This document shows positions 8,544-62,738 of a stretch of DNA of 64,000 bases, one piece after another. The notes under the pieces are model-generated. The model saw only the letters and a program-made list of their open reading frames with translations, was not told the origin of the DNA and did no database searches. The stretch lies in the IMG/VR virus record IMGVR_UViG_3300037519_000101, one strand, 5' to 3'. Position numbers and translations under genes: made by a program. Numbering within the stretch: position 1 is the first letter of the stretch; each line of letters opens with the position of its first letter. This stretch comes from an uncultured virus (IMG/VR IMGVR_UViG_3300037519_000101). Its lineage: Duplodnaviria; Heunggongvirae; Uroviricota; Caudoviricetes.

Positions 8544-8578
8544 TGTTGAATACTGAGAAAAATTCCATAAATTATAAT

Positions 8579-8821
8579 ATGGAAGATACTAAAACACACA
8601 AGATTGTTCTACACAATGATAATCAGCATGATTTCTTATATGTTATTGCATGCTTAATTAGATTTTGTAATCATGATGCTCATCAAGCAGAACAATGTGC
8701 TCTTATAGCAGACGGTAAAGGTTCAGTAGATGTTGCATCTGGTAATTATATGGATATGCTAGAAATTAGCAGTTCTTTAGAACAGATGCAATTAAAAACA
8801 GAACTTAGAGAGTATGTTTAA
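8579..8821 (+). CDS. clpS: ClpS-like Clp protease adaptor
   Basis: KIVLHNDNQHDFLYVIACL...QAEQCALIADGKG resembles ClpS; start 8579 or 8543. Confidence 0.8.
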   Translation: MEDTKTHKIVLHNDNQHDFLYVIACLIRFCNHDAHQAEQCALIADGKGSVDVASGNYMDMLEISSSLEQMQLKTELREYV

Positions 8822-38000: not shown

Positions 38001-41000
38001 CCAAACTCATCACGGTAAGTAAAAATTAAATCTGAAATAGTTTTATATGCACCAGAAATATCAAAATCCAAATTCATGTTTTCTCTCATGTTTTTTTGGA
38101 TCTCAGTAAGTCTATTTAAAAGATTAGCTCTTCTTTCATAGAATTCTTGTGAATATTTAATCTTAATGTTTTGTTTTTCCCATTTTCTTAGTTCTGTTTG
38201 AAATTTTGGATCATCTCTTTTTATTCTTTTAGCCTCTAATTCAGTAACAAATTCATTGTATGCTGTAGATAATGAATTAGGAATTGGAACCCATTCATAA
38301 AACTCACTGGTTGCATTTCTATGCTTAATAAGTAATTCAGCAATAGACTTATCATATATACCATTAGCTGGATCATCAACTTTTTCTGTAGCATCTTCAT
38401 AGTGTAAAGAGTACAGTTGTTGATATGCTCTAAAGGCTGCTTCTATAGTACTATAGTTTTCAAATCTTTCAAGTTCTTTTTCAAATTGGTTTTGTAAGTT
38501 TAAGAAATTATCAAAAGCAGTTTTCTTAGCTAAGTATGCAAGTTTTCCTATTTCAGATTCATTAAAGATATCATCTTTCTCATAAAGCTCTGGAACAAAT
38601 TCTTGCCACATATAAGCTTTATTGAATTGTCTTAATCTATCAAGAGCTTCTGCAGTTTTTTCTTTATCTCCACTGTCCTTAGCTAAAGCATATTCATACT
38701 CTAAATTATCTTTTTCATATCTCCACCCATTACCAAATTCATTAAGGAATGTGTATACTTCTTTAGGAGCAGGTTTTCCAGTTTGTTTGTCAATATAAAA
38801 GATGGTGTCTCTTGTAGCCACCATATCTCTAATTTGTAAAGAATTTAACTTACTAAAGTTAACCTGTGGTAAAAGCTTAGCTAAGACATTTCTAAATATT
38901 TGAGACTTATTCCATACTTCATTTTCTACTTCAGTTTTTTCATTCTGAATATACATAGCAAGTGAACCTACTATAGGGTCATTACTTGATGAATAAGATT
39001 CTAACCATCTATTGAACCAGCTTACATCTTTTGTTTTACCGGATAAGATATCAGATATTTTATCTTCATTAAGTACATAAGTATTATATTGTTGAACAAA
39101 TCTATCCAGTACTTCTTTTGGAACACCTTTTTGATAAAGTCTTTCCAAATCAGCATCTGTTATAGTATTGCTAATAACTTTATTATACAAGTCAGTAACT
39201 TCATTTTCTTGTTCCTCAAGAGGTAGTTTTTTTAGAGCTATCTTTAAGTTATCATTTAACTGGTTTTGAACAAAATCTGTCATGTAACCAGTAATTTGAA
39301 CAAAAAGTTGAACATTATTTTTCTTATATATTTCTCCAATCTTTTTAACAATCATGGTTGAATTGTTCAAAACTTCATTTAGAGTTTGATAAAATAAACT
39401 ATCTGTACCTAATGTATAGTCTTCAAGTATTTCATTTATTTCATTTATCAAACCTATCCAAGAATTTGCTGTAGAGCTATATAAGGCAAGTAAAGCAACA
39501 ACATTTCTATTGTTTATTAAAGATGCATTTTCATCAATAACTCTAAGCTCACCTAATGTATTTATACTTGCACTTTTGATACGGTCAATACTGTTAACAA
39601 GAGCTGTTGCTTTTATCAAGGCAAGTTCTTGTAATTTTTCTTCAGCATTAATTGCATTTTCAATTATTGATTCCGGTGAAACATTATTTGTAGGATTAAC
39701 ATCCTGGAACCCTTTTAAACTTTTATCTACAGCAGGTAATAATTCTGTGTTACCTTCTTTTAATAAAGCTCTTTGCAACATTGCTTTATTTACACTGTCC
39801 TTACCAGTATTAAACTCTCTAGCTTTATTTAAAGTAGCTTTACCATTCAAGTAAGTATAGTTTACTATAGACTGAACTGCTTCTGGAGAGGAATTCTTTA
39901 ATAAATCTTCCGCTCTTTCTACTACTTCTTTGTAATACATTACTACATCAGCTTCAGTAATTGGTTTAGTTCCTAAATCAAGGTCAATTTCCTCATCACT
40001 AAGTAATATGTCTCCTAAGTCAGAGATAGTTGTTGTTGAACTTAGGTTTTTTACGTTTACTCCATTTCCAAATATTCCACGTAAAAACTTTTTTAATGCA
40101 GCTAATAACTGATTGATAAATGATTCAAACCCTTCTGATGCAACTTTATCATTAACTTTATTTACAGCATCTAATTGTAAAGCATAAACTAAAACTTCTT
40201 CTTTAAAAAGAGGTGTGTCTTGACCAAGTTCAGGATATAATTTTTTAACATGAGCAATTATTGCTTGACCTTCATCTGTTTCTGACAGTGATGCAAATAA
40301 ATTTTCAAATAATTCTGGATTAGATCTTCTAATACCTTGTATAAAAGGATGTGAGAATTCATGTAAAACAGTATTAATATTTACATTATCTCCTACAAAA
40401 TAAACACCTCCCGCAAAATAAAAAGCAGGCTCTCCCATATAAGGTTTAGAACTATTTTCTAAGATTTTTTGTGCTTCTTCAGGTGATACGCTAAAGAAAT
40501 CTGTATTCATTTGAGCAGCAAGTTTTTTTGCAAGTACTTCAGCAACTTCTTTAGTTCTTGCATTATTTACTGACTCAAGATCAATATTTAATGTTTGTGG
40601 TTCTTCACTGTTTAATTGAAAGTATGTAAACTGTGGAAATGATTCTGAAAGATCTGTAGGTTGATGTAAGACATAATCTTGTTGATCTTTAGGTCTAGCA
40701 AACATTCTTTCTTCACTCATTAAACGTGACAAACTAAGCTTACCTTTAAATATAACAGCAGTAGTTTTATGTATACCTTTTGAATTACCACTATCAACAT
40801 TGTCTTTATGTACAAAAAAATCTACAGCCATGTGATTTTGACTTGTTGGTTTTACAATATTACCATCTTTATCTCTAAGATTATACGCAGTAAGCCAACC
40901 ATTTCCTCTAGTAAAATCTCTTCCTAAAACTTCAACAGTAAGACCTTCTTTAGGAATTAAAAAAGCATAAGTTGTATATCCTTTAGCATCACTATCCCAA

Positions 41001-42544
41001 CCATAATGATAAGGTACACCATTTATAGACTCAACTTTTTCAAGCATAACTTCATAGTCTTCTTTATTCTTTACAGAAAAATCAATATCATGTATAGGTT
41101 CTTCTGAACTTCTATATACTGCGTCTCCTTGTGCAGCAATAGCAAGTGATCCTGTAAGTTTAGCATCTAGTTTACTAAATACATTTATGATATGTTGAGC
41201 AAATTCATTACCTGATAATGCTTTTTCATAGTCTAATTTAGCAGTAGATGTAGCTAATTTGGCAATATAATCTTTATCACCCATTAATACATTAATTGCA
41301 ATATGATCAGCAACTCTATCATTATACTCCATTTGAGCAAGTATGTTATTCTTATAGATACCTCTCAGCTTTTCAAAAACTTCATAAAGTAATTCTAAAG
41401 CTTTGTCTAATAATGATTTATCTAAACCACTTGCTTTGTAATTTTTAACTAATGCTTTAGCAATTAATTTACCAACAGCTTCAATCTTAACTTGCTTTTC
41501 ATTATTGTATAAAGGCATATATTGTGCTTTTACACTTGAATATTCAGACCAAGTTGTGATATTATCTATTAGATATTTTATAGCTTTATTTTGCTCACCC
41601 ATTAACATTACTATCATATGGGCTGCTTCTTCAGGCAGTGTTTCAGCATTTCGGTGTGTACTGTACCAGATAAGTTTATTTAAAACATCAGTAGCTCCTA
41701 AAGCATCAACTCCTAATTTAGATTTAAGATCTGCAAACTCTTTACTTTTTACACCAAAAGGTTTAAGAAACTCTAATAGGTAATTATCTAATTCTTTGAT
41801 AGCAGGTTCTAAAACTTTTTCATTCTCTAATTGGAATAAAGTTAACTGCTCACCTTCTTTATAGTTTGTGTATTCATAAGAGCCCGGATTTATTTCTTTA
41901 GCAAAACCTCTTCTAACTAAACCTTTCCAAACCCCTGTGCTATTTTCATTTAAATTACCACTTCTTAAAGCAATATTAGTTCTACTTAAACTTTTATTTA
42001 GTTCTTTATAGGCCCTTATAGCAATACCTTGATTTCTATATTCAGGATAAATTTCAACCGCATCTACTGTAGCAATATTACCTTCTAGTTTATAATTTAT
42101 GTCACCTACTTTAGTACCATTTCTTACTATATCTAGATTAAAACTGTTATCATCATAACCAGAATTAAACTCTAAAGTAATTTGTTCTTGTTTAGCTTTA
42201 TTGGCGTCAGGCATTATTGACTGATCAGCTATTGCTTTAGCACTATCATAGTTACTTTTTAAAACTTGTAACTGTTGAAACAATGATTCATTTGGTTCTG
42301 CTCTTTCAACATTAATAGTAGTATTTCTTCTATAAGTAGAAGTTCTTTCATCAACAAGTTGTTTACTTGTCTTATCAAACAGCAACTGACCATTTGTTTT
42401 AAGACCATACCTTTCTATAGCAATATCTGTTAGAGCTCTATTTACTTTTTCAAACAAAGGTTCATTGATGATCTTTCTTGAATCATCAACGGACTTTGTT
42501 TTCATCAGAGTTTTTATTGCATTTACTTTAACCTCACAAACCAT
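35024..42544 (-). CDS. Giant polyvalent virion cargo protein (GNAT, zincin-like x2, nucleotidyltransferase-like, LysM)
   Basis: IYPEYRNQGIA; LPEEAAH; TGSLA...HDIDF; VLHEFSH...EE; HTYQKGESLEEIAKKYNVTVEELKAKN; probable start MVCEV at 42544. Confidence 0.8.
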   Translation of the reverse strand: MVCEVKVNAIKTLMKTKSVDDSRKIINEPLFEKVNRALTDIAIERYGLKTNGQLLFDKTSKQLVDERTSTYRRNTTINVERAEPNESLFQQLQVLKSNYDSAKAIADQSIMPDANKAKQEQITLEFNSGYDDNSFNLDIVRNGTKVGDINYKLEGNIATVDAVEIYPEYRNQGIAIRAYKELNKSLSRTNIALRSGNLNENSTGVWKGLVRRGFAKEINPGSYEYTNYKEGEQLTLFQLENEKVLEPAIKELDNYLLEFLKPFGVKSKEFADLKSKLGVDALGATDVLNKLIWYSTHRNAETLPEEAAHMIVMLMGEQNKAIKYLIDNITTWSEYSSVKAQYMPLYNNEKQVKIEAVGKLIAKALVKNYKASGLDKSLLDKALELLYEVFEKLRGIYKNNILAQMEYNDRVADHIAINVLMGDKDYIAKLATSTAKLDYEKALSGNEFAQHIINVFSKLDAKLTGSLAIAAQGDAVYRSSEEPIHDIDFSVKNKEDYEVMLEKVESINGVPYHYGWDSDAKGYTTYAFLIPKEGLTVEVLGRDFTRGNGWLTAYNLRDKDGNIVKPTSQNHMAVDFFVHKDNVDSGNSKGIHKTTAVIFKGKLSLSRLMSEERMFARPKDQQDYVLHQPTDLSESFPQFTYFQLNSEEPQTLNIDLESVNNARTKEVAEVLAKKLAAQMNTDFFSVSPEEAQKILENSSKPYMGEPAFYFAGGVYFVGDNVNINTVLHEFSHPFIQGIRRSNPELFENLFASLSETDEGQAIIAHVKKLYPELGQDTPLFKEEVLVYALQLDAVNKVNDKVASEGFESFINQLLAALKKFLRGIFGNGVNVKNLSSTTTISDLGDILLSDEEIDLDLGTKPITEADVVMYYKEVVERAEDLLKNSSPEAVQSIVNYTYLNGKATLNKAREFNTGKDSVNKAMLQRALLKEGNTELLPAVDKSLKGFQDVNPTNNVSPESIIENAINAEEKLQELALIKATALVNSIDRIKSASINTLGELRVIDENASLINNRNVVALLALYSSTANSWIGLINEINEILEDYTLGTDSLFYQTLNEVLNNSTMIVKKIGEIYKKNNVQLFVQITGYMTDFVQNQLNDNLKIALKKLPLEEQENEVTDLYNKVISNTITDADLERLYQKGVPKEVLDRFVQQYNTYVLNEDKISDILSGKTKDVSWFNRWLESYSSSNDPIVGSLAMYIQNEKTEVENEVWNKSQIFRNVLAKLLPQVNFSKLNSLQIRDMVATRDTIFYIDKQTGKPAPKEVYTFLNEFGNGWRYEKDNLEYEYALAKDSGDKEKTAEALDRLRQFNKAYMWQEFVPELYEKDDIFNESEIGKLAYLAKKTAFDNFLNLQNQFEKELERFENYSTIEAAFRAYQQLYSLHYEDATEKVDDPANGIYDKSIAELLIKHRNATSEFYEWVPIPNSLSTAYNEFVTELEAKRIKRDDPKFQTELRKWEKQNIKIKYSQEFYERRANLLNRLTEIQKNMRENMNLDFDISGAYKTISDLIFTYRDEFGQPDAGQLGNDRLEKIKNLEQDIVDFRSKFDYRTGLSKEDAGTLSFLLEKSKVEDLDTNEAMLLNDLIQKQKAKGVDVELVEEMTDIFNSLSNLSSNLPTEYYLDALNMRLSKFNVVEVTETTVDNFINSEEFTELLVQDEELRKWFNINHIEVKRYDKGKEVDKFQRTSANSVMRPKEGKYYETTTIFDNETGEEVTLLGVPNARHSRREVKDKYRTIPRGAIREDYIGKYVDNKGEYLPRLFQPGTKYSAVDDRFIDKRYQALKANPESPEFKLLEAIKEHHLDMQKNGSNYGKLYMDVPRYSTKKGDFYQAFQKGQYGDKFKNINSNVKEWLKQKFGKSTEDYLNDLNYDADNNLVNTDLNGDEISYIPVTGIFNLDADVVDADIFNSLFRYALSLQTQKQLYKSLPLVKSIISTLEDPKNQPKNLQKKSKQLQDGKNKVRAFVNLKTDTYNRLEQIRSLIDREYFGRKVVGMEEANPRLTKWLSNLTKWSSRSSLMMNIPSDLKNQFSGYVQTIIESSGGRFVTGKDLALSSAWATKAMMDWAMNGMYTTGPGNLSSQLVQIFDPNFKTTDEYGNTVYKSLFKDLMNFEWTYMHRKFGEMDVAMRLFGAFLYGQKLEQDLISGDKATIRYVDAWETDENGVARLKAGIHPGWSNLSVYHTYQKGESLEEIAKKYNVTVEELKAKNRIKSQVQLTEGQEIVIAKSEKYKLFKNRLQGTSRALFGVYDDFGQPEGNKLLLYRMFFFMRKWFTPMFTNRFGMDTSKENFGGARYDWALGKTTKGFYVNSLQVIYRGLKSKGVEFQFMTEDEKADLRRAMAEGMIVTMSALLASLLFGYEDGDEDRWKKIKERSGPINSDNFNTYGFLTNHALLLLLGVQAETGAFIPLPKITVNGVSINLGADDYSKLLTSTSTAFSNTVLTYMEIFGDILNFATASDANKYKKDVGPYWFQKKGENKIYKRVFSLLGFSGGTGDPETLLKNLSKSGGRIR

Positions 42545-42546
42545 TT

Positions 42547-45500
42547 TTATACACAATTAAAAGGATCTGTCTCAAAACCATACGCTTGTAAGATTTCTTC
42601 ATCAGATATTCCTTGTTTACTAACTATTAGATCATCTATCTCTTTATGTAGGAGAGAACCAGGGTTCAAATATCCTAATTTTTCATATAACTCCCTACTT
42701 AAATATACAAATAAATCTTGAGGCATGAGGTTTGGATTTCCAAATCCTGCTGTAGGAAGGGCAATGTTTCCACCTTTTTCCTTAATGCTCTCAGCAGTAC
42801 TTAAAATTTTACTCCAATATTCTTTTATTAATTCTTTATCATCAGCTGAAAGATCAGATAAATTATCATTTTTATCTAAAGAAATTATAACTGGAATACT
42901 CATATCTGGTGCATGCAATTGCATAACTGATTGCTCAGTATGATTTTTATTTCTATTGTCTTCAAATTCTGAATTAGTAAATGAATGTAAGAAGATAACT
43001 TTAGAATTTTTGTCTGTTAAATTCTTATAGTATTTACTGTCTTTATTCTTAGAATCATACAAGAATACATTTGGTTCTTTTGTTTCAATTAAATCTGATG
43101 TAACATCTACTGATTCCGGTTCTGTTTTATTAACTTCAGTTTTATTAACATCAAAATCAGTTAAGTAATTTTTGAATTCTTTTTTAGTTGGGTTTGTTAC
43201 TTTGTTATTTGCAAACTCAAACTTATTCAAGTAGTCATTAAGTATAAAAATTCCTTTTAGAGGATCTTTATCTAGTAATTCTATAAGCTCATTACCAGAA
43301 TCTTGAATAATATCAATTACTTTAGTATAATCCACAAATGGTACTAAGTTATAAGAAGACTTGTTTATACCAGATTGTAAGTATGCAAAAGTAGGTAACA
43401 TAGAAAACAAATCAGTTATTTTCTTTATGTCAGCATCATTTAGCTTTAACTCTTTAGCAAAAGTTTTTAGAACTACAGGATCAGCTAAATCTTTAAAGTT
43501 ACTTATAAACATATTAGCTTTAGTACTGTTGATATCTCTATCGGCAATACCTAAGTTGAATATAGTTTGGTCAAAGTTTGATTCAGATTTCAATACTGAT
43601 AGAACATCAAATTTTTTGGTTAACAAAGGATAGTCAAATATAACTTTTGATACTCTGTTTGCATATGCAGTGTTTACATTATTGAACAAATGGTTAAAGT
43701 TATATGTATTGTCTAATGCTTTCTCTGCTAAGAATTTTTCATATTCTTTTTTAGATTGAGATTCTTCTTTAGGATAAATGCTTCTCAAGTATTCTCTTTC
43801 AATCACAAATTTCTTATACTGGTTAAAGTTTTGACCTTTTTCAATTCCAGTAAAAGTCATCTCATCTACTTGATGTAAACCTAATACCTTATATGGATTT
43901 TCCGGATCTTCATTTGATGTAGCCCAAGCTTTATTTTCAAATTGTAATTTTAAAACATCATCATTAACAAATAAAGTTTTAGATTCATCTTTGTTAGTTT
44001 TTACATAAGCTCCAAAATACTTAGATTCAAAACTTTTAATATCTGCAGTTTCTTTCAAATCATAAGACATGTAACTGTCTCCTAACTTATCTTTAAGCAA
44101 AGCATTTTGGAAAATATAACTTACAAGATCATTTCTGAATGCATTAATAAAAGCTTTTTCATTTCCATTAAAAGTTTTATCTACAATTTTATCTAGTAAA
44201 CCGGTCTTCTTTAAAGTGATTATGTAGTTACTAAATGTTTTATTGTATCTTAATTTAAATAATGGTCTACTTAATGCTAATGCTAAAGGTCCGTTAAAGA
44301 AGGAACTAATAACAGAATCATTCATCAAACCTGTAATTAAATCTGACATGTATTCATCATCTACTAAATCAGATAATGTATTTTCAGATAACTCAATGTT
44401 AGTAAGTGTAGTGTTAGTATTGGTATCCGGATTTGCATTCATTTTAACTTTTGTCAAACCTTTAATTTGATCTTCAATTTTTAAATAATGCAAGAACATA
44501 GCTAATGACACCTCTCTTTTCTTTTTACTTGGATCAGCTGCGGATTCTTCAATAAGTTTTAACATTCCTTTTTCAGTAAAAACTTTCTCATCTCTGTCTT
44601 TCATTACTTTTTCTAAAAGTGAATCAGCAGTATCTAGAATAGTTTTAACTTTTGCATCTGCAGGAAGTATATTTTTTGGGAAATTATTAGCTATTACTTC
44701 TTTCATAGCTGTGTATTTAACCAAGTTTTGACTATCTACAGCTTTACCTAACATAGGTGCAAATGTAGAACCTATTAAGCGTTGTTGATCTACATACTCT
44801 CTTACTAATGGTTGTGACACAAAGTAAATAGCTTCTTTAACTGGTACACCAGCTTTTACTAAAAATAATAATATAGGTGCTACTTCATAGTTACCTTGGA
44901 TAAAGAATATCCATGCATCTTTTTCAACATCCACCCAACCATTTATTGCTTGAGAAAATATATCGGCAATTTTATTTACATTATCAACATCATAGATATT
45001 AGAAAGAGAAATTCTTTCTTCTCCATTAACATTCATTGTATTATGTCTTAATGCAAGACTTGTTTCTCTTATCTCTTCATTTTTGGTACCAGGTTTACTC
45101 ATATAAGTTTTTGGTAAACTTGCTCCTATAGAATTTAATAAGATATTAAATGTATTTTCAATTGCTCCAAGACCAAGGGTAGCCTTACCTACTATATTAG
45201 ATTCATGTTTGTATAAATTATACATTGTCTCTAAAACTCTAGTAGGACTAATTTGTTTTTCTTTACCTGGAGTCATTAATGTAGAATATGGATTATACTG
45301 CATTACATATTCAGCTAATCTATCTGCAGTTTCTTTAAGTAAGAAAGTACCATTAGGAGTAACCAGAGACACAAAGTTCTCAGGTAATTCCAATATTGCT
45401 TTAACATCCTTAATTAATTCATTTTCTAAACCTGCCATTTGCTCTTTAAATAATTGATCTAAAGATTCACCAGCAGCATTTTTTTCTTTTATAGCATTTT

Positions 45501-48500
45501 TAACAGTTTCAATATCTGCCATAGTTGGTTCAGCTAACTTACCATCTGCATTAATGTTAGTCATGAAGATTGTAAGTTTATCAATATCAAAGTCACCCCC
45601 GGACTTAGCAACTATCTCTGCTGGCGGGATAATGATGTTACCTGCTTGTGGAGGTAAGAATTCATAAACTTCCATGAACTCCATAGAGTTTAGACCCTGA
45701 ACCGGAATCCTAACCCCTACAAGAGTTATTGCTTTTCTGTTAGCTTCATTATCAGCATCTAACCATTCATCATCTTTGATAGCCTGGTTTAATCTTTCAA
45801 TAGTACCAATGGTTTCTCCATTATATTCAAGATTCAACAAGTTAGCATAGTCCCCCTGTAATGCAATCATAACCTTCATTGCTGCAGTTTTACCATTAGC
45901 CTTCTTGTGATATGTAGGAAGTACATTACTACCTCTCCATTTTTTCTTCTCAGCATCTGTTGCATTTGTAAAATCTCCAATACTACTTATGTTATTTTCA
46001 AACATTGCTGAGGATACTTGTACTAATGGTTCACCTTTAATTTTTTGTTTAATGATTCTTTTATTAATCATTGACAAAAGCACTTTTTCAATTTTAAGTA
46101 CCTCTGGGTGATAAGATAAGTCAATTGCTATTTGACCAGAATCTACTGAATCAATGAAATCAATTAACTCATTTCCATAAGCATCTTCTCTTTCTAAGTT
46201 AGCTCTGATTAATTCTAATAGTTTAGAAACACTGTCTTTATCTCTTGGTTGGTATTCACCTTCTGATACTTCATCATAACCAATTTCTTCTAATAGTTTT
46301 AATTTAACTAGTTCAGTATATGCAGTTACATCTTTTAAGTATTTTTCTACAACCGGTTTAGCTGATTCAGAAGTAATTTTACCATTCTCATAAAGGTTAT
46401 CTAAGATTAACTTTCTCATCTGAGTAGAGAAGATAGACTTACCTTTAAAGTCAGCATTAACTTCTGTTTGGTTCTTTAGGAACTCTGTGAAGATTGTATT
46501 TACAGTAAACTTGCTATCTTCAATTATTTTACCTTTCTCATCAAATATTTCATCACCTTTACCAATATGTCCAATTTTTGAACCAGATTCATATACAACA
46601 TAGTCTAGCTGATCTCTCATCATTTTCTCATGTAAATCATATAGTGGTGTACCTTTTTTTGCTACACCTGGTATAATTGGATTAAGTGAAAACTTATGGA
46701 AAGATGTTACAGGTAAGAAATCTGATTTGATATTACCTATATACTGTAATTTATATGGTGGGAAAAACTTAGTAATATCTCCTGCAGCTACATCTTCACC
46801 TTTAGCAATTTTTTTGTAAAGTTCTTCTTGTTCTGGTAACCAGCTTCCTTCAAGATTTTTTAACTTTCTATATGCTTCAAATGTAACATGCCCTTGACCA
46901 TCACCAATTTCCATACCTTTATAACCTTTAAGTGCTATTTCAGTAAGTTGTTTTGCTTTGTCTTTATCTTTTAATCTAGAATAGTAATCATTATATACAG
47001 CATCATAGTACTCATCATAGTAAATTGATTTATCAATTTCTCTTTCTTTTAGAATTGCTGTCTTTAAAGTACCATCATAAGCTCTAGAACTAAAACCAAA
47101 TGAATCTGAATAGTAAGTAGGTAAGGAGTTTACAAAATCTAATATTTTTTTATCAGATGAGAAACTTCTTCCACCCCCACCAAAACCAGCATTACGCTTA
47201 TGGAACTCTTCTTTGGTATGATTATATTGAGCTAAGTCACCATATACTATAATTGCAGTCTCAAATTTATGAATCCAAGAGTTATATGTATAAGCTTTTA
47301 AAAGAATTTCATTAACCTCATCATCTGAAAGATTATCAAATCCAGGTATTCTTTCTTTTAAACCAGTGTCAATATATTTTGCTTGCTCTAATCTATCAAG
47401 ATTTTGTTTAGTAAGCTTTGTAAAATAGTCAGTTGTTTCTGCTTCTAGTATAGCTCTCAAAGAAGGATCTGAATTAATCACATCCATCATGTCAAAAGAA
47501 GTGTTTTTATCTGCTACAGCTTTGTCTATGATAGCATATAACAATGCTTGTGTATCTTCTGTAAGAACATCATCAAATGCAGTAAATGCACCCCCGGCCA
47601 TTACCTCAGTATTTTTTTTATCTTTTCTTGTTACTTTTCTGTTATAACCCTTATAGTTTTTAAGAGTGTCTTTATTAAGACCAAACTTAAATATTCTATT
47701 AGACTCAGCCATTATATAACCAGAAATGATATCAAAAGCTCTTGACTCACCAAATCCATATGGTGCAAAGTTCTTGATGTCTACATATAATTTGTTATCA
47801 CCTTTAGCAATACCGGTATCAATTTTTCCTGTTACAGTCAAACCTTGAGCCATTTGCTTAGAAGCATGTCTCATAAATTCTTCTACACCATTCATCAACA
47901 TAGTATGTATCTCTTGTAAGAACTTACTTGTTGCATCCATTGATGCAGTAGAAATACCATCTTTTTTATCTTGAGCTCCTTTTCTTTGTTCTATTAACTG
48001 TGTACCAGCAACATTATTCAATAATAAATTGTTTTTTAATCTTGTTCCTGCAGGTTTCTTTTTGTCTTTTAAATCAAAAAGAGAACCAAGTAAGTAAGAA
48101 TGTAAAGAATAAGGATTTATCTCCTCAGATAACCAACGCATGTGTTGGAATTTGTTTGATGGATCAGCCTCTGCTCTGGTAAGTTCTGACCAGGACTTAG
48201 CAAAATTGATTGATGTTATTTTTCTAGTGATTGTATTATCTAAGAAATGTTCCCATACTCTATTTCCTTCAGGGCTTAGGGCACTAAAATTAGAATATAA
48301 ATCAGAATTAGCTGCTTGTAATCTTGCAAGTTCTTTAACACGGGTATTAGATATCTTCATTTTAGCATTGCTACTAAAGTCTTTAGTAACACCCTCCATG
48401 ATATATTTAATTGGATTTCTTGCAATGAATAAAGCTTCAGTATTTGATGTAGCAACAGCACTTCTTATAGTACTAAATATATGGTCAACACCATATCTGA

Positions 48501-51500
48501 TACCAAATCTTGGATCATCAGTTATCTCTCTAATTGCTTTATTTGTATAATCTAATTTAATACCAATAGCATTTAAAAAGTCTTTTGATAATTCATACTT
48601 AAAGTCTCCGTTTTTATTGGTAAATGTTTTGAATACTTTCTCAGTATCCAATACATATCTGTTATTTATTGGATCAAATACCATAAACATATTAGTACTT
48701 GGATCTTCATTAACAAACATAAAGTTCCAATCTCTAATCACATTATTAACAGGGAAGTCTGATTTACTTACTACAGCATCATAAACTGCTTCTCCTTTTT
48801 TAATTGGAGTAGCATTTACATTTAACTGTAAATAAGAAATTCTTGGTTTTTTTAAATCTTGCCAAAAATTAACATCAATATTAAATTCAGTAATGTCATT
48901 GTAATTAGCCAATGATGGATCAGGAAGCAATGCTAAAAGTTGTTTTATTTCTGGCTCAGACTTAATAGCATTTTGTAATCTACTATACATCTCAATTTTA
49001 TCAAAGGAACCGGCTAATATTTTAGCAAGCTTGTTCCACATGATCCCCATGTCAACTAATATTGGTTCTCCAAATTCATTTAATTCATATTCAATATTGA
49101 ATTTAGTTTTACCATCTACTACTTCAAAATCAAACTTTGATCTATTAACTTTATAGATACTACTTAAAATAGTTTTGGTAGCTTCACTTGCCTCATCTTT
49201 TGATGATATAGTGTTACCACTGTCCAATTTAAAAGTTTGAGACTGCTCCATGTTAGTAGGATCATTATCAATCTCTACATAAGTATTATTTAAAATTTTA
49301 AATCTTGAGTTTTCTAAGTGGTAAGCAACAACACCTGATTTTTCTTTTCCTTCTACTGCAGCTTTAGGATCACCAAAATTGGTAATCATCTTCTCAATAA
49401 AAGTTAAGTTACTTAATAAGTAATCTGGAACATCCTCTCCTGTAGATGCAAGCTGTGCAGCTTCTACCTGATAAGCACTAAATTTATTTTTCAATATACC
49501 AAGAACTGTGTTATACATTGCTACACGGTTATTGTTATTGTATAAAATTTTAATAGCTCCTGCTGTATTGTTTTTAGATTGGTTGTATTTAAGAAAAATT
49601 TTAGGCAGAATAGTATCCACTAAATTCGCAGCTTTTAAAGACTCAGATTCTGTAAAGTCTTTGTATTCACTTTTAAATTCTTTAAGTGGTGTAATTACTT
49701 TAGCTCTGTTAAGTTTAGTAAACATCATATTATCTGCAGATGGTTGCATGTTTTGTAACAACTCAGGTCTTTCAGAAGCATAGTATAATTTGTCAAACAA
49801 TTCTTTTACCGCAGCAATTTCTCTTGGTCTTGTAATAACTTGTTGTTTTGTTGCTTTACCAAAGAGGTTATTTAGGAAATTATATATTCTTCTAAATACT
49901 GTACCTAAGAAGCCTTTAGGAGCTTTGTTTTTACCTTTGCTTCTAGCATAATCTCTAAAGTCTTCAGCAATATCTTCTTCAATTTCCCAATAAGATTTAT
50001 CAGCCCATTTTGGTTGAGCTTTTAATTCATTATATAATTTAATTTTTTCAGGTTTGGTAAGAAACAATTGTGAGAATCCGTGCCATGCTTCATGGTATAT
50101 ATCTACAGAAGTACCACCATCACCTTCATAAAGTGTAATACCTGATTTACTAAAAGTAGCAAAGGCATTAGAGTTTACAATTTTTGCAATTCTGGTTAAA
50201 CTTATTTCTTTATTTAATGGAGAATTATCCCACCAAGTATCAGCTACTTGTTTATCTTCTTCAGTAGTAAATAACTTGTCTAAAAAATTATCTAAAGATT
50301 TACTTCTTTCAAATTCATCAACATCAAAATCAAAATCTAAATCATCAGGCATATCAGAAAGATCTACTTTATCTAATGTCTCATCAGTTATATTGTCAAG
50401 TTCTTCTTCAAATGGAGCTTCTTCAGTAACTTTAGCTGCTTCAGTTCTAGACTCTTTGTATTTTTCTTCTTTTGTTGTAGGAGCCGGTGTGTTTACTTTT
50501 GTATTTTCAACAGCTATAGCATACTCAGAATTATCCATGAATTCAGCTGGAATCTCATATACTAAATATGGATTATTACCATAAGCATACTGTTGATATT
50601 CTTTACTGTATTTAACTTTTGTATAATCTTTTTTGAATTCAAGGTACTCTACTGGAGTTACAGTAATTTTATTACCTTCTACAGTAAAGTCATTGAAAGT
50701 AGTATTCTTATAAGTATCATTAAAATGTACTGAGACAGGTAAAGCATTACCATTTTTACTTATTCTTTTAACTTTTAAATGTTTTTTGATTGCTTCTTTT
50801 GCTTTTTCAGTATATAAGTCATCTCCTGAAAATACAATGTCATTACCTTCAGAATCTTTTATTGCTACTGTAAGAACACCATCTTTAATTTTAGCAGTGA
50901 TTTGTTCTCTGTTTGTTTTCTCAGGATAGTTGATTGTGTTATTGATAAAAACTTCAAAGTACTCTTGTCTTTGTTTATTATCTAATTCTTTACCTGTTGA
51001 TAATTTTGCTTTGGTTGTTAAAACTGTTGCAACTTTTTCAGCAAGTACTTCATCAAAGTCACCATACATACAATCAATAACTTGCGGGATTCTTCCTACA
51101 GGAGTATCAATAAATACTGTAATAACAGGTACACCTTTCTTACTATTGTTCTTATCCTTTATAATATCATATGTAGATAATTCTTCTTTAGTGATACCAA
51201 CTTGACTAGCAGGTTTTGCATATGCATCTGGTGCAATACCTAAACTACCACCAGTAATATTTAATTTTACAGGTTCTTCACTTGCTTCAACTAAGTTTCT
51301 TAAATTATACAAACCATTCATTAGTTCAGTTTGTTCTTTTAAGATCTCTTCAGTTCTTACATCAACCCATTCTTGAGTTATTTCTCCTCCTTGATCAGCA
51401 AATAAGTCTGCTTCATCATTAGCTAATTTCTCAGCATTAACAAGAGTATTTTTATAAATACGTTTTTGACCATCACCAAGTGTTCTGCTATATACTAAAG

Positions 51501-52368
51501 CAAGTTCACCATCTACTTTTATTACTTTTCTTAAAAAAGTATAAACAACAGTACCATTCTCTTCATCAGTTATGTTACCATCTTTATCAAAATAAATATA
51601 GTTACCTTCTTTATCAGTTATAACTCCAAATACACCAACAGATTCCTCATCTTTGGCAATTAAATGTTCTCTTAATTTATATTCATCAGGAAAAGATGAA
51701 GCTCTGGTAGCAGACATTATGATTGGAACACCTTGATATATAACATCAGTTTCAGTTAATGATCTGTATGTTATTGCTGCTACAATATTTTTCTGAACTA
51801 TATTGAATATACCTTTTTTTTGATCATCTGGATTTCTATTCTCACCTTTCTTAAACTCAGTAGGATTTTTAGATCTTGATGTTTGTAAAGATGTAACATT
51901 AGGATAAGAAATTTTAGCAGCATTTCTTTTTTCTAAATCAGAATCACTCAGTGCAGCATCACTTTCAACTTTTACATCATTCTTAGTTTTGTTTACTTCC
52001 TCAAGTTCTTTTTCTATATCATCAAAAGATTCCTTTTTTGGATTTATAAATTTCTGAACATTTTCTAATTCTTCAAATTCAATAGACTTATCAAGAATTG
52101 GATCAAGACTAAAGTTATTAGATCTTAAATATTTTTTGATTTTATTATTGCTAACAGCAACTAAAGAAAAAACATCCGGTATAGCTTGTGCATACAATAA
52201 AGCTTTATCTGCTTCCCCTGTAGCTTCTTTTACACCTTCATAAATTTCTTTTATCATTCCATCAACTGAAATATCAAAAGGTTTTCCAGCACTCATACGG
52301 TCAAATACTTCACCGTATAATGCTACATATAAATCTTTAATCTGATTGTCTTTTAATGCACAAGCCAT
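42547..52368 (-). CDS. Virion-packaged single-subunit two-barrel RNA polymerase (crAss-like) with a zincin domain
   Basis: VRIPVQG...GGDFDIDKL (45580-45594), DGQG, FHKFS, STQMRKL; YHEAWH at 50080-50094. Confidence 0.92.
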   Translation of the reverse strand: MACALKDNQIKDLYVALYGEVFDRMSAGKPFDISVDGMIKEIYEGVKEATGEADKALLYAQAIPDVFSLVAVSNNKIKKYLRSNNFSLDPILDKSIEFEELENVQKFINPKKESFDDIEKELEEVNKTKNDVKVESDAALSDSDLEKRNAAKISYPNVTSLQTSRSKNPTEFKKGENRNPDDQKKGIFNIVQKNIVAAITYRSLTETDVIYQGVPIIMSATRASSFPDEYKLREHLIAKDEESVGVFGVITDKEGNYIYFDKDGNITDEENGTVVYTFLRKVIKVDGELALVYSRTLGDGQKRIYKNTLVNAEKLANDEADLFADQGGEITQEWVDVRTEEILKEQTELMNGLYNLRNLVEASEEPVKLNITGGSLGIAPDAYAKPASQVGITKEELSTYDIIKDKNNSKKGVPVITVFIDTPVGRIPQVIDCMYGDFDEVLAEKVATVLTTKAKLSTGKELDNKQRQEYFEVFINNTINYPEKTNREQITAKIKDGVLTVAIKDSEGNDIVFSGDDLYTEKAKEAIKKHLKVKRISKNGNALPVSVHFNDTYKNTTFNDFTVEGNKITVTPVEYLEFKKDYTKVKYSKEYQQYAYGNNPYLVYEIPAEFMDNSEYAIAVENTKVNTPAPTTKEEKYKESRTEAAKVTEEAPFEEELDNITDETLDKVDLSDMPDDLDFDFDVDEFERSKSLDNFLDKLFTTEEDKQVADTWWDNSPLNKEISLTRIAKIVNSNAFATFSKSGITLYEGDGGTSVDIYHEAWHGFSQLFLTKPEKIKLYNELKAQPKWADKSYWEIEEDIAEDFRDYARSKGKNKAPKGFLGTVFRRIYNFLNNLFGKATKQQVITRPREIAAVKELFDKLYYASERPELLQNMQPSADNMMFTKLNRAKVITPLKEFKSEYKDFTESESLKAANLVDTILPKIFLKYNQSKNNTAGAIKILYNNNNRVAMYNTVLGILKNKFSAYQVEAAQLASTGEDVPDYLLSNLTFIEKMITNFGDPKAAVEGKEKSGVVAYHLENSRFKILNNTYVEIDNDPTNMEQSQTFKLDSGNTISSKDEASEATKTILSSIYKVNRSKFDFEVVDGKTKFNIEYELNEFGEPILVDMGIMWNKLAKILAGSFDKIEMYSRLQNAIKSEPEIKQLLALLPDPSLANYNDITEFNIDVNFWQDLKKPRISYLQLNVNATPIKKGEAVYDAVVSKSDFPVNNVIRDWNFMFVNEDPSTNMFMVFDPINNRYVLDTEKVFKTFTNKNGDFKYELSKDFLNAIGIKLDYTNKAIREITDDPRFGIRYGVDHIFSTIRSAVATSNTEALFIARNPIKYIMEGVTKDFSSNAKMKISNTRVKELARLQAANSDLYSNFSALSPEGNRVWEHFLDNTITRKITSINFAKSWSELTRAEADPSNKFQHMRWLSEEINPYSLHSYLLGSLFDLKDKKKPAGTRLKNNLLLNNVAGTQLIEQRKGAQDKKDGISTASMDATSKFLQEIHTMLMNGVEEFMRHASKQMAQGLTVTGKIDTGIAKGDNKLYVDIKNFAPYGFGESRAFDIISGYIMAESNRIFKFGLNKDTLKNYKGYNRKVTRKDKKNTEVMAGGAFTAFDDVLTEDTQALLYAIIDKAVADKNTSFDMMDVINSDPSLRAILEAETTDYFTKLTKQNLDRLEQAKYIDTGLKERIPGFDNLSDDEVNEILLKAYTYNSWIHKFETAIIVYGDLAQYNHTKEEFHKRNAGFGGGGRSFSSDKKILDFVNSLPTYYSDSFGFSSRAYDGTLKTAILKEREIDKSIYYDEYYDAVYNDYYSRLKDKDKAKQLTEIALKGYKGMEIGDGQGHVTFEAYRKLKNLEGSWLPEQEELYKKIAKGEDVAAGDITKFFPPYKLQYIGNIKSDFLPVTSFHKFSLNPIIPGVAKKGTPLYDLHEKMMRDQLDYVVYESGSKIGHIGKGDEIFDEKGKIIEDSKFTVNTIFTEFLKNQTEVNADFKGKSIFSTQMRKLILDNLYENGKITSESAKPVVEKYLKDVTAYTELVKLKLLEEIGYDEVSEGEYQPRDKDSVSKLLELIRANLEREDAYGNELIDFIDSVDSGQIAIDLSYHPEVLKIEKVLLSMINKRIIKQKIKGEPLVQVSSAMFENNISSIGDFTNATDAEKKKWRGSNVLPTYHKKANGKTAAMKVMIALQGDYANLLNLEYNGETIGTIERLNQAIKDDEWLDADNEANRKAITLVGVRIPVQGLNSMEFMEVYEFLPPQAGNIIIPPAEIVAKSGGDFDIDKLTIFMTNINADGKLAEPTMADIETVKNAIKEKNAAGESLDQLFKEQMAGLENELIKDVKAILELPENFVSLVTPNGTFLLKETADRLAEYVMQYNPYSTLMTPGKEKQISPTRVLETMYNLYKHESNIVGKATLGLGAIENTFNILLNSIGASLPKTYMSKPGTKNEEIRETSLALRHNTMNVNGEERISLSNIYDVDNVNKIADIFSQAINGWVDVEKDAWIFFIQGNYEVAPILLFLVKAGVPVKEAIYFVSQPLVREYVDQQRLIGSTFAPMLGKAVDSQNLVKYTAMKEVIANNFPKNILPADAKVKTILDTADSLLEKVMKDRDEKVFTEKGMLKLIEESAADPSKKKREVSLAMFLHYLKIEDQIKGLTKVKMNANPDTNTNTTLTNIELSENTLSDLVDDEYMSDLITGLMNDSVISSFFNGPLALALSRPLFKLRYNKTFSNYIITLKKTGLLDKIVDKTFNGNEKAFINAFRNDLVSYIFQNALLKDKLGDSYMSYDLKETADIKSFESKYFGAYVKTNKDESKTLFVNDDVLKLQFENKAWATSNEDPENPYKVLGLHQVDEMTFTGIEKGQNFNQYKKFVIEREYLRSIYPKEESQSKKEYEKFLAEKALDNTYNFNHLFNNVNTAYANRVSKVIFDYPLLTKKFDVLSVLKSESNFDQTIFNLGIADRDINSTKANMFISNFKDLADPVVLKTFAKELKLNDADIKKITDLFSMLPTFAYLQSGINKSSYNLVPFVDYTKVIDIIQDSGNELIELLDKDPLKGIFILNDYLNKFEFANNKVTNPTKKEFKNYLTDFDVNKTEVNKTEPESVDVTSDLIETKEPNVFLYDSKNKDSKYYKNLTDKNSKVIFLHSFTNSEFEDNRNKNHTEQSVMQLHAPDMSIPVIISLDKNDNLSDLSADDKELIKEYWSKILSTAESIKEKGGNIALPTAGFGNPNLMPQDLFVYLSRELYEKLGYLNPGSLLHKEIDDLIVSKQGISDEEILQAYGFETDPFNCV

Positions 52369-52371
52369 TTC

Positions 52372-55300
52372 TTAACAAGTTTTTGAATTATTGAATAGGT
52401 TATTAAATCTAGTAGCTTTATCTGTTGACTCAGCTTCTTTTTCAGCTTCTTGAATTACATCTTTGTTATTTGAAAATTCTTCAAAGTTTTCTTTACTGAT
52501 AGTAGAGTTGTCTTGAGTTTCTTCAGTAACTGGAGTTTCTTTTTCTTTTTCAGCTTCCATGGCTTCTTTAGAGTATTTAGTAAAATTATCTTTAAGTTCC
52601 TGTTCAGTAAATGTTTTCTTAGTGTCTGTACCATAGATCTTTACAACAACTTGTTTAGAGCTCTTGTTCATTGAAGTAACTTCCACTACAACATTTTCTG
52701 CACCATCAAAGATAGCTGTTTTTGAGATAAGAAGTGAACCTTTTTCTAATGTATCTGCTGAAACATTTTGTAATTCTTTCTTTCTATTTTCAAAAGCTTG
52801 TTGAACATTAACTGCTGATACATCACCTCTATTATTAATAGCATTTGTGTATGCCTCACGAAGTTCAGTTTCATTCTTAGCATTGTTTATACCATCAAAT
52901 AAATCTGAATTTTCAGTTGCTTGTACTTTAGGTGCTGTAAAAACAGGTTTTATCTGTTTAGCAGAGCCTACTATTTGTTTAAGTTCTTCTGTTGAGACTC
53001 CTTGTTCAGGTAATCCAGAAACTGCTTTTGTTTGTTTTCCGGTAGACTTTTCATTCTGAGATACACCAGTCCCTTTCTGTACTTTTGTGGTTGCTCCGAA
53101 GACTTTGTTTGCTGCCCCTTGTTGCTTGCTGATTCTTGGTTTTTTTGTTTTTCCATCTTCAATAATTTTTATCAAATTTAAGTCATTTTTAAGATGTAAC
53201 AACTCATTAATTTGATTTGATACATCATCTACTAAATCCCCTCTATTAATAATTGTTTCCCCTAATGCATTTAAAGAATCAATTGACTGGTCTATCCAAT
53301 AATAAATACCCATTAACTGAACAGGAGTTATTGCCTTAACACCTTTTTCCATTAAAGTATCTAATTGCTCAGGATAATCTGTTTCTAAAGCTTCTGTTAT
53401 TGCTTTACTTACAGCAGAAGATAAACTAAGTCTATCAATTTCTTTAAGATGTTTTACTTCCTCTAAGGGTTTGAAATTTTTAGTAGCTTTTTGGAAACTA
53501 TTAGGTAAAGTATTTAAAGCAAATATGTAATCATTTGCATTACCACCTTTTTCAAATATCAAGTCATTAGTTTCTATAAGTTTATTATTTACTTTTTCTA
53601 ATACTTCAATACTATCTTTAAGTTGAGCAATTTGATTTAATACAAATAACTTAGTAATGGTACTTTTTTGTTTTACATTTTGTTTTTTAACAATTTGGTA
53701 AATTCTATTGAGCTCTTTATTTAACTCTTGAATTTCTAAATCATTTCTTAAAATTTGCTTTTCATTTTTTCTATAACTTAAAGCTGCAATTGCACCTGTC
53801 TTATCTCTAATAACATCATATCTAACATCATTAATAATAGCAGTAGTTTCATCCTCATTAGTAAATTCAGCTTTTATGTATTGACCATTTAGTCTGTTTA
53901 CCTGGAATGGGAAAGTAATACCGGTAACAACACCAATACCTAAGTCTAATCCATCTAAAGAACTATCTGTAACAGGTTTAAATTTATAGTAAAGAGTTAC
54001 TATTTCTTTACCACCTTTAGCATTACCATCTTTGATTTCTTTTTGTAATTCAGTGATTTTATTGTCAAGTCCTTTTCTATATTCTGGATCCGGTGTTTCT
54101 AATAAATCATCTGCTTCTAGATCTTTTTCTAAACTTGCTACAAGTTGCTCTAGTAAATCTATATCTTTAGTTACTCTATATTCAATACCAAATGATCCAT
54201 TAGGCAAAGTAACAACTTTACCAAGACGGCCATTAAACAGTACTGTTTTATTTAACAGATTGCTCAAACTTGTTTTTGATAAATCTTCAATTTCTTCTAC
54301 TTTATCTGAGGTATCTTTTGTTTCACCAGTCCCCTCTAAATCACCATCTTCTTCAGTTAAATCAGTTTCAAATTTAGGTTCTATCATGGTTACACCATAC
54401 TCAGCAATGTCTTCTAAGAATGGTAATGGATAATAACCTTTAGCAAGAAGTTCTTGTTTATTGGTTTTATTATCATCCATTTTTATTGGTTTACCATCTT
54501 CACCTAAAACATCTACTTTAGCTTTATCAATGTCTCTTACATAACCATCAACATTTACATCAATCTGTAAAGGCAATACTCTTAATTGTTCAGCTTTAAT
54601 ACCAGTCATGTTATAAAACAATGTAGCATAAATTGATAACTGGGCACGGTGACTTATGTTTTTATAGTTGTTAGGGTTTTTATAATCTCCCCATTTCTTA
54701 GAAGTCTTGATATCAATAATCATGATTTCACCTTTAGCATTGACAGCTAATAAATCTATCTCACCTGTAATACCCAAAGTTTTATCAAACACTAAAAGGT
54801 TTTCCGGAAACAATACAAATTTCCCGTCAATCATCTTGCTTCTTATAGAAGATACTATACCACCCGGTCCAAACAATCTATTGAAAGCTTTCTGAGACAT
54901 GAAGTCTGAAACTTTGTAATCAACACCATTTATATCTATTGTACCTGTATACTTAACTTCAGCAAATCCTTCACCAGAACCAGAATCAAGAGTTAAAAAT
55001 TTTCTAATTAACTCATCAACTTTTGTACCTGCATCAGTAGATTCCTTAAATGCATATTCATCAATTAATTTTTCTAGTCTTTCAACAGTAGGCTCTTTTC
55101 TCAAACCTTCTTCTACAGCAGCTAACTTAGCTTTAGAATTAAACTGATCGTAACCACCACCTAAAGAAAGTTTTTTAAACAAAGCCATGAATGTATCAAC
55201 GGCTTTATTTGGATCTGTCTCATTTTCTAAAACAGAAGCAAACCTTTTTATAAGATCACCTTTCTTATTGTAACCTGCATATTCAAATCCACTTTTGTCA

Positions 55301-62500: not shown

Positions 62501-62738
62501 CTGATACTCTCTTTAATTCATAGTCTATATTTTTTAGATAATCATCTTTCATCTTATTACTAGAATCTCTAGTAACATCTTGATAGTATAATTGTCCATA
62601 TAAATTATTTAATTGCTTATAATTCTTGTCATATTGATTTTGCTTTGTTTGCAAAACATTATTATAAAAATTATAGTCAGGCTGAAATGGTTGAAAATCA
62701 GGAATATAATCTGTTACACCTTGTATATATGAAGCCAT
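59598..62738 (-). CDS. Probable virion cargo/structural protein
   Basis: 1046-aa ORF in the cargo operon; function inferred from position. Confidence 0.7.
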   Translation of the reverse strand: MASYIQGVTDYIPDFQPFQPDYNFYNNVLQTKQNQYDKNYKQLNNLYGQLYYQDVTRDSSNKMKDDYLKNIDYELKRVSGLDLSLEQNVEQAKQIFRPVYENKNLMKDMALTKNYKDEKSRALALAASKNKEDRGAYWDVGIKDMDYRLEEFKNAAEADVLGFGNIMYTPNVNATKQYLDMAKEYNLSVDITEPDASGMYTVRQKNGDLIIPTLQKMFYADYINDPALQKKYSTEAYVKRKDEAKARASKYGDNEVLAEKEFLKEQFLFLKDYTKEKTKQSEEAVTVSTNKKNNVEQDISNGKVNPFQPAYLQKIAQAIEVDEIVYKHNRDLSEEIDPSGNGTIQGNDITSVEGLNLDNLEQARSNVDRLLASYLAEQDIIFAADAYSKNDMIYKKEISPLGLETVRHQNAMQRDQINNERADRRATAKINAASEDARIKYLLENDLAEIDPDTGQIARDPYSGEIILTPASPQQLDKSKSGKGGQTDSRTVNMVKHNREVLIENIDNLSSGYVETWVNSIKNGITLGEIKANDLAYLFGTDRAGGQKIWNEIQNNFDNGADGRQKLVRDLTINAKIFDYKKRMDAWALKNNGTSVGEDYNTHSSISSYKLDQMRMFYKVHRDTKEENRKRIANTLSTKLENTGIKDKALRYTIIDQYLKKYVTGETWEDDEFNDVLENIFDSYEKRTGKKASPPGFFERAGKTIKALPTIVGLNPGNPLGTLEAISNSFSSSDLLSEMNNEYENIVYQPDHKLGLISYLPDTKGTAGSKASKGAIPTFIDVNLGRKDDNLISFNQFLYDLTKINFNQADKNSYRVSLDGNEYDPDANPDVNLNNKLYNMLFDLKNLSKNKNQRSNPTIFKLAQSQIAAENSDLGAMEISNIPNEVIKKYFDEKTDAEVIDKIKTNGITYIAPTSNWKNSLFQSNRITPTEAILNTGKKLSYVDPSYGHTVIFDKDNVTGNYRYTTVIRAVDENGEYFEQKESSMAQPFGKQIDNKLNNIMKSFADANARLKGDYERFHNSNNEKVVKAFNEKFGRAPKNPGFNTL

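Follow-up and report, generated by a model that had tools for sequence, protein, structure and literature searches.

Conserved cysteines at the abutting ends of three giant proteins of a crAss-like phage and their possible role in a disulfide-linked chain

No phages of the human gut are more abundant than the crassviruses. A stretch of 64,000 nucleotides from an uncultured virus of the Caudoviricetes (IMG/VR record IMGVR_UViG_3300037519_000101), the whole of which is referred to here as the window, was found to be part of a divergent crAss-like phage with three abutting giant genes, here called A, B and C, on its minus-strand half. On the basis of its DFDID motif and its homology to PDB 6VR4, the product of gene B is a crAss-type virion RNA polymerase. 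The three proteins are almost devoid of cysteine, and four of the six cysteines that they do contain are located at the ends at which neighbouring proteins adjoin. The pattern is real, highly non-random and conserved, and it follows the break points between the proteins from genome to genome. We consider it rather probable, by analogy with a link seen in another phage, that A, B and C are joined end to end by interchain disulfides between the abutting cysteines.

Cysteines at the inner ends of A, B and C

The genes, the codons and the motifs on which the analysis rests are the following (positions are those of the window).

52372..59595, minus strand: gene A, 2407 aa; first in the proposed chain; N-terminus without cysteine
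42547..52368, minus strand: gene B, 3273 aa; crAss-type virion RNA polymerase by motif and homology; N-terminal extension bears a zincin-like HEAWH motif
35024..42544 (from the ATG), minus strand: gene C, 2506 aa; last protein of the proposed chain; C-terminal region without cysteine
52375..52377, minus strand: TGT codon of A Cys2407, facing B
52360..52362, minus strand: TGT codon of B Cys3, facing A
42553..42555, minus strand: TGT codon of B Cys3272 (...DPFNCV), facing C; invariant in alignment A2
42536..42538, minus strand: TGT codon of C Cys3, facing B; invariant in alignment A3
56725..56727, minus strand: internal Cys957 of A; unconserved (V in locus L015, A in L065)
51070..51072, minus strand: internal Cys433 of B; unconserved (L in L001 and L014, I in L015, V in L002 and L003)
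45580..45594, minus strand: DFDID catalytic motif of the RNA polymerase, B residues 2259-2263; D-F-D-x-D invariant in alignment A1
50080..50094, minus strand: HEAWH zincin-like motif, B residues 759-763; the homologous motif is located in protein A of crAss001

Together, A, B and C contained six cysteines in 8186 residues (0.07%). Protein A had cysteines at positions 957 and 2407, the latter being its final residue (...SKTC), B had cysteines at positions 3 (MAC), 433 and 3272 of 3273 (...FNCV), and C had a single cysteine at residue 3 (MVC). The outer ends of the series, MANTK... at the start of A and ...GGRIR at the end of C, were free of cysteine. An earlier note on this DNA had described this arrangement, with cysteines at the abutting ends, none at the outer termini and two elsewhere, and the count bore it out. 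Relatives in which the two internal residues, Cys957 and Cys433, were replaced by V, A, L or I showed 33-77% local identity.

The other open reading frames (ORFs) of the window with at least 150 aa contained 88 cysteines in 8596 residues (1.02%), a rate that predicts approximately 83 cysteines for A, B and C together. Assuming uniform placement, the probability that at least four of the six cysteines fall inside the 12 positions that lie no more than 3 residues from the four inner termini was ~4e-11. The 50 other ORFs of the window served as the control for end position, ORFs on the opposite strand of the 80 related loci described below being too few for this (n=12). Among these 50 ORFs a cysteine was present in the first 6 residues of one and in the last 10 residues of four.

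In the window the three genes abut within 2-3 nt, the genome is AT-rich and all four of the terminal cysteine codons are TGT. The A|B junction reads TGT TAA GAA ATG and is in frame, as had been stated previously; the B|C junction is out of frame. A TTG at 42556 would provide an alternative start for C, giving LCIKMVC, and the ATG at 42544 is favoured by the sequences of the relatives, which begin M-x-C.

The identity of the three proteins was examined by sequence searches. The core of B matched chain A of 6VR4, the structure of the phi14:2 RNA polymerase, with an E value of 7.7e-13 (phmmer, PDB sequences); this match was obtained with the core segment alone, as full-length B gave no match to PDB sequences at E 0.001 or better. 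B also aligned with phi14:2 gp077 (BLAST, E 2e-20), and a search of the 'phages' collection with its core gave 109 records at 21-30% identity; those listed were, with few exceptions, crAss-like phages. No match was returned from the same collection by megablast with the entire 24.6-kb region or by tblastn with the C-terminal 450 aa of B. Residues 1602-1678 of protein A resembled a PD-(D/E)XK exonuclease (phrog_298, E 3.9e-8), and residues 1517-1700 of A aligned with residues 1709-1887 of crAss001 gp47 (BLAST, E 1e-9). Protein C carried an HEFSH motif and a LysM domain (E 9.3e-9), and its N-terminal 121 residues aligned with residues 1-125 of phi14:2 gp076 (E 2.6e-10). Mass spectrometry has placed crAss001 gp47, gp50 and gp49 (PMC10172136) and the phi14:2 RNA polymerase gp66 (10.1101/2020.03.07.982082) in the virion. 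These proteins are orthologues of A, B and C and have the identical terminal-cysteine pattern. The two sources also show the polymerase orthologues to be packaged and to act on early genes; judged by them, B would likewise be packaged in the virion and act on early genes.

Conservation of the pattern and movement of the break points

Searching IMG/VR with a B-core profile (alignment A1) yielded 534 confirmed loci, and the best 80 of these, with 29-94% core identity, were analysed. These 80 loci are biased towards the window's own clade, and 72 are non-redundant by their junction strings. Protein starts in the relatives were assigned mechanically as the first ATG under translation table 11. Thirteen named crassvirus genomes from the Steigviridae, Intestiviridae and Suoliviridae were compared in addition. 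The earlier note had suggested counting cysteine positions in orthologues, and across these 80 loci and 13 genomes the terminal cysteines were, with few exceptions, both conserved and present on the two sides of the junctions.

Complete B proteins (n=63, 2237-4903 aa) contained exactly two cysteines in 56 cases, three in five cases, four in one and one in one, which amounted to 132 cysteines in 226,448 residues (0.058%). Of 67 relatives, 66 had the first cysteine of B at position 3-6, and in all 76 the last one lay among the final 8 residues. In 62 of 64 relatives the final 10 residues of A included a cysteine, and in 59 of the 64 the upstream protein had exactly one cysteine; the two relatives that departed from the end position were L087, in which the cysteine was 19 residues from the end, and L074, which had none. 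All 76 C heads had their first cysteine at position 3-6, and in 62 of them it was the sole cysteine of the whole downstream protein. The outer ends were again free of cysteine: none was found in the first 20 residues of 11 complete A proteins or in the last 20 residues of 39 chain-final proteins that were complete at the C-terminal end. The residues flanking the terminal cysteines varied freely (alignments A2 and A3), with no conserved His, Cys, Asp or Glu adjoining them.

Both synonymous codons were in use among the relatives (TGT 53 and TGC 13 at the B head). The A|B gap ranged from -11 to +62 nt and occurred in all frames, and intergenic gaps overall extended to more than 500 nt. The proposal that the in-frame A|B junction of the window is the mark of an ancestral polyprotein was not upheld by these gaps. 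A polyprotein formed by read-through or fusion was also rejected, since the A|B gaps vary in all frames and B|C is out of frame.

Of the named genomes, phi14:2 presented the cleanest case. The only cysteine of its gp078 (1797 aa) was the last residue, its RNA polymerase gp077 (2180 aa) had cysteines at 3 and 2179 only, and gp076 (1421 aa) had one at position 3 only. In crAss001 and DAC15, gene A is located far from B and on the opposite strand, and its only cysteine was nevertheless terminal (2339 of 2341 and 2220 of 2222, respectively). In crAss001, gp47 Cys2339 faces gp50 Cys5, and gp50 Cys2404 faces gp49 Cys5; these three proteins have masses of 262.5, 276.9 and 154.5 kDa (PMC10172136). As both TGT and TGC are used, gaps vary and gene A of crAss001 and DAC15 is on the opposite strand, the effect acts on the protein and not on the DNA. 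A cysteine pair was present at 8 of 8 split A|B junctions, crAss002 being counted with a start at Met33 that gives MSC, and at 9 of 10 split B|C junctions, the exception being cr273_1. Sequence comparison indicates that the rule is kept down to ~23% identity.

Several observations were made on the annotation of these genomes. The annotated start of crAss002 gp33 (L011, 15948-16050) is probably 32 codons early, Met33 giving MSC..., which compares with MSCGN... in crAssphage LMMB. Under table 11 the annotated cargo proteins of cr113_1, cr131_1 and cr273_1 (L095, L099 and L100) contained 36-73 in-frame stops, suggesting that stop codons are recoded. In cr108_1 (L013 21785-22076), cr116_1 (L098 20717-21558) and cr131_1 (L099 17137-17932) an insert splits the RNA polymerase gene at DFDxD. 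This insert is ~290 nt in cr108_1, bears an ORF in cr116_1 and cr131_1 and has an intron-like look, and the annotated protein ends at these interruptions are probably not real termini. Gut lineages carried many more internal cysteines than the IMG/VR relatives of the window. Upstream cargo-like proteins with a single cysteine 2 and 8 residues from the C-terminal end were encoded by LMMB (4682-7267, 861 aa) and crAss002 (5253-6926, 557 aa), respectively.

Twelve of the IMG/VR loci (L020, L027, L069, L071, L078, L080, L081, L082, L085, L088, L090 and L091) encoded one more protein, 165-782 aa long, that separates B from the final member of the row. Each of these 12 extra modules contained exactly two cysteines, one at position 3-5 and one in the last three residues, and the protein that followed again started with M-x(1-4)-C. 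The ORFs inserted between modules that broke the rule were GIY-YIG homing endonucleases. Cysteine-rich ORFs of the GIY-YIG/NUMOD type were located exactly between chain modules at L020:15775-16365, L090:10024-10638 and L074:15252-15797, those of L020 and L090 being at extra splits. The giant genes may have been cut through homing-endonuclease insertion.

Where A and B were fused into one protein (cr113_1, cr118_1 and cr108_1), the joint intervals mapped by BLAST contained no cysteine. Cys2018 of cr113_1 and Cys2041 of cr118_1 were considered as relics of the junction and were rejected, the BLAST joint being ~190-250 residues upstream. Locus L074 encoded a B-containing protein of 4665 aa without an N-terminal cysteine, and its upstream neighbour had no C-terminal cysteine, so that both members of the pair were absent together. 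The first 1900 residues of this protein gave no match at E<=1e-5 to A or to the B heads of other loci, and its label as an A+B fusion thus derives from its length and alignment offset. At the fused B+C joints, resemblances ('NSFN-C-PSYTF' and 'D-C-GAN') were noted by eye only.

The A|B break point was found in different places. A zincin-like HExxH domain is present in protein B in the window and in protein A in crAss001, LMMB and others. Residues 2135-2210 of crAss001 gp47 aligned with residues 735-814 of window B (E 7e-5), which places HEAFH at 2157 of crAss001 A (2341 aa; 184 residues before its C-terminal end) against HEAWH at 759 of window B. This indicates a shift of the A|B break point by several hundred residues, the cut having been made on different sides of the same domain in crAss001 and in the window, with the cysteine pair at the actual cut in each.

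Possible roles of the terminal cysteines

Cysteines were present at both sides of splits, absent from the outer ends, present twice in each inserted module and absent from mapped fusions, and this argues for pairing across the junctions. The earlier note had proposed a head-to-tail linkage in gene order. Its pairing and its chain order are strongly supported by the comparison (conservation, gene A on the opposite strand, fused joints and extra splits), and the polyprotein argument fell away. The disulfides, the ordered packaging and ejection as one thread and the release in the reducing cytoplasm that it also proposed are conjectural for crassviruses.

A link of this kind is known from cyanophage A4, in which a disulfide between gp27 Cys1715 and gp26 Cys5 is visible in the virion by cryo-EM (PNAS 2025, PMC12002296). 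There it stabilises a C-terminal helix inserted in the partner, within a pentameric ring layer of the pre-ejectosome. In the sequences of Anabaena phage A-4L, Cys1715 was the sole cysteine of gp27 (1717 aa) and Cys5 the sole cysteine of gp26 (1114 aa), the product of the next gene. The two cases are alike in that adjacent genes encode large ejection proteins with a cysteine at the C-terminal end of the upstream protein and at the N-terminal end of the downstream one. They differ in that A4 has one link between two proteins of a ring layer and no involvement of an RNA polymerase, whereas in crassviruses there would be two to four serial links under a rule that extends across an order, the disulfide itself being suggested by analogy. 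BLAST of A-4L gp24-gp29 against A, B and C gave E 0.16 or worse for gp26 and gp27, and the best match of the set was gp28 to B (E 0.005, 23% over ~140 residues). As gp27 and gp26 show no sequence similarity to A, B and C, the likeness is one of mechanism and not of descent.

The scarcity of cysteine also has a precedent. In the homologues of the virion RNA polymerase of N4-like phages (Schitoviridae), cysteine makes up 0.00075% of residues as opposed to 0.865% in the proteomes, and the explanation suggested for this is passage through the periplasm, where disulfide-forming enzymes are present (PMC11445570). Suppression of this type was found in A, B and C taken together (0.07% as opposed to 1.02%). 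The systems share a giant virion RNA polymerase that is injected with the DNA and suppression of cysteine in ejected proteins. Unlike the crassvirus proteins, the N4 polymerase is a single chain of 3500 residues (NTD, core and CTD) with a polymerase fold unrelated to the crAss type, and as it has no cysteine at all it has no links. A 2026 paper on N4 remarks that how the three RNAP-associated proteins of crassviruses relate to the NTD, core and CTD of N4 'warrants further investigation' (PMC13434306).

If the disulfide-linked chain exists, A, B and C would travel in the capsid as cargo and enter the host by injection, each nearly free of cysteine and each retaining a single cysteine on a short end segment at every abutting terminus. 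In the virion the C-terminal end of A would pair with the N-terminal end of B, and the C-terminal end of B with the N-terminal end of C. The product would be a linear N-to-C chain of ~8200 residues and ~0.9 MDa, a functional equivalent of a polyprotein or of the 3500-residue N4 polymerase. Links confined to the ends would leave the chain unbranched and able to thread the tail channel, which in crAss001 is narrower than 50 Angstrom (PMC10172136). By our own argument, a polymer stays linear only if its cross-links are at the extreme termini, and for this reason such a chain could pass a channel of less than 50 Angstrom. The modules would then be separated by the reducing cytoplasm after entry. 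In AB toxins an interchain disulfide holds in the oxidising exterior and is released in the reducing cytosol of the target. The analogy with these toxins is one of principle, with no homology, and reductive release in the crassvirus case is conjectural.

We propose tentatively, as a possibility rather than a probability, that the whole constitutes a redox-cleavable, post-translational polyprotein: cysteine-free modules that form a chain of ~0.9 MDa, thread the tail like the N4 polymerase and fall into active enzymes in the cytoplasm. On this proposal a single cysteine pair would restore continuity, so that the genes could be cut at new places in evolution, for example by homing-endonuclease insertion; and genes that can be recut would allow break points to move and the number of modules to range from two to five.

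A different function for the same pairs, which we regard as unlikely but worth serious attention, is assembly. The links would then lock a complex resembling a pre-ejectosome, or provide 1:1:1 co-packaging by means of a single packaging signal. The disulfide of A4, which stabilises a pre-ejectosome ring, speaks for this, as do the conserved domains formed by the last ~85 residues of B and the first ~110 residues of C, which offer a possible docking interface. AlphaFold models of the B tail and the C head were built from 14-row alignments. In these, C Cys3 was modelled in coil just ahead of a helix (residues 4-15) of a confident N-terminal domain (pLDDT 72-91, residues 1-100), and B Cys3272 in a low-confidence tail (the last 25-30 residues) behind a folded alpha/beta domain, which suggests that this tail is flexible. 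Both placements fit exposed chain ends and speak for the disulfide-linked chain. The B tail and the C head (180 and 125 aa, alignments A2 and A3, respectively) were also modelled as a complex, without controls; the scores were 0.45, 0.30 and 0.05, with a median of 0.30 against a mark of 0.32, which counts neither for nor against pairing. Confinement of cysteine to the extreme ends and its loss elsewhere suit a chain that can be threaded, and docking alone needs neither. The assembly function and the disulfide-linked chain are not mutually exclusive.

The earlier note had also offered a metal ion (e.g. Zn, Cu or Fe) shared by the paired cysteines at each junction instead of a disulfide, and HExxH motifs do occur elsewhere in B and C. 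With a single cysteine at each terminus, freely varying flanks and no conserved His, Cys, Asp or Glu beside it, such a site is improbable, and the sole solved case with a signature of this kind, A4, is a disulfide.

Very improbable is a third reading, in which the terminal cysteines are unpaired and either tether the proteins to another part of the virion (portal, capsid or DNA) or are relics of polyprotein cleavage sites. The preprint by Drobysheva et al. (10.1101/2020.03.07.982082), which describes the three proteins as fused in some phages and 'likely cleaved', lends it some support, as does the cargo-like protein of LMMB and crAss002 that has one cysteine near its C-terminus and no obvious partner. 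A tether or relic, however, does not account for outer ends that never have a cysteine, inner ends that nearly always do, extra modules that carry two or pair members that are lost together at mapped fused joints, and the invariance of the cysteine amid changing neighbour residues is unexpected for a relic.

Chance, a DNA-level junction signal (translational coupling) or a gene-calling artefact, which the four TGT codons, the AT-rich genome and the 2-3 nt spacing might suggest, is refuted by the conservation in relatives, the use of TGC and the wide variation of the gaps, and the placement probability in the window, the separation of A from B in crAss001 and DAC15 and the mechanical first-ATG starts leave its probability negligible. 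A split intein was likewise considered: no intein or Hint family was among the Pfam matches of A, B and C at E<=0.01, and cysteines 1-9 residues from the ends leave no room for intein halves.

A number of points weigh against the disulfide-linked chain. Gut phages live without oxygen, and the cytoplasm of the host is reducing. Among the 53 ORFs of the window, none matched a thioredoxin or thiol-oxidase family. The B|C junction of cr273_1 breaks the rule, as the nearest cysteine in its B tail is 50 residues from the end, and so does the A tail of L087. Internal cysteines are tolerated in some gut crassviruses (15 in the cr8_1 fusion and 27 in cr131_1 gp50). Homology to A was not found for the extra ~1180 N-terminal residues of the 4665-aa protein of L074, and the fused B+C joint in LMMB, crAss002 and cr8_1 was not mapped by BLAST or by mixed B-tail/C-head HMMs. 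By eye, LMMB keeps one cysteine in an 'FNC-P' context that simple pairing does not need. B and C are fused in both LMMB and crAss002, the two phages with a single-cysteine cargo-like protein that has no obvious partner. As the A4 link stabilises a ring layer, the function may be assembly or co-packaging and not ordered ejection. Disulfides have been described in the tail and portal vertex proteins of crAss001 virions, which speaks for the feasibility of such bonds; against the chain, the available part of that paper (Bayfield 2023, PMC10172136) lists them for structural proteins only, and its structure did not resolve the cargo.

The earlier note knew of no description of such a linkage. For crassviruses this held: no statement of the terminal-cysteine rule was found in a literature search that left most subscription journals outside its range, and the available parts of Bayfield 2023, the Drobysheva preprint and the 2023 Crassvirales review make no mention of cargo cysteines. 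More widely it needs qualifying, as the type of link in A4 (PMC12002296) and the suppression of cysteine in N4-like phages (PMC11445570) were already known. The proposed serial chain, with the virion RNA polymerase in it, would extend this type of link from one phage to the Crassvirales families examined.

The rule provides a concrete hypothesis for the way in which crassviruses inject nearly one megadalton of protein, part of which is the RNA polymerase that sets the infection going. If the hypothesis is true, the three 'RNAP-associated' proteins would be one functional unit comparable to the N4 polymerase, their extreme avoidance of cysteine would be explained, and giant genes would be shown to be splittable and re-splittable without loss of function. 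The rule may also be used in annotation as a marker of membership of the cargo chain and of true start codons (e.g. that of crAss002 gp33).

Neighbouring genes and minor observations

One further large protein is encoded immediately upstream of A.

59598..62738, minus strand: protein of 1046 aa upstream of A; zero cysteines

Pfam and PHROG searches with this protein gave no match; its position and its absence of cysteine make it a probable additional cargo protein that lies outside the chain. Next to it, a protein of 372 aa (62799-63917, minus strand) had two CxxC pairs, at residues 74/77 and 95/98, with the look of a zinc ribbon; its neighbours are free of cysteine.

When the models of the B tail and the C head were compared with the PDB by Foldseek, nothing matched at E<=0.001. 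Below this level, the conserved alpha/beta domain ahead of the C-terminal cysteine of B (residues ~3093-3243, window 42630-43090; GFGDP..MPQELFVYLS..) was weakly similar in fold to dual-specificity or RNA 5'-phosphatases (E ~0.01-0.02), without the catalytic cysteine. Residues ~120-200 of C (window 41945-42200) showed a weak GNAT likeness, with a match to Pfam Acetyltransf_CG (E 0.0037) that was below the cut-off and Foldseek matches (E ~0.02) on a low-confidence part of the model.

The plus-strand half of the window encodes replication genes, among them helicases, a primase, UDG, ThyX and homing endonucleases. This replication module also contained a ClpS-like adaptor (8543-8818, plus strand; E 1.5e-12) and a spore-photoproduct-lyase-like protein (10928-11833, plus strand; E 4e-20).

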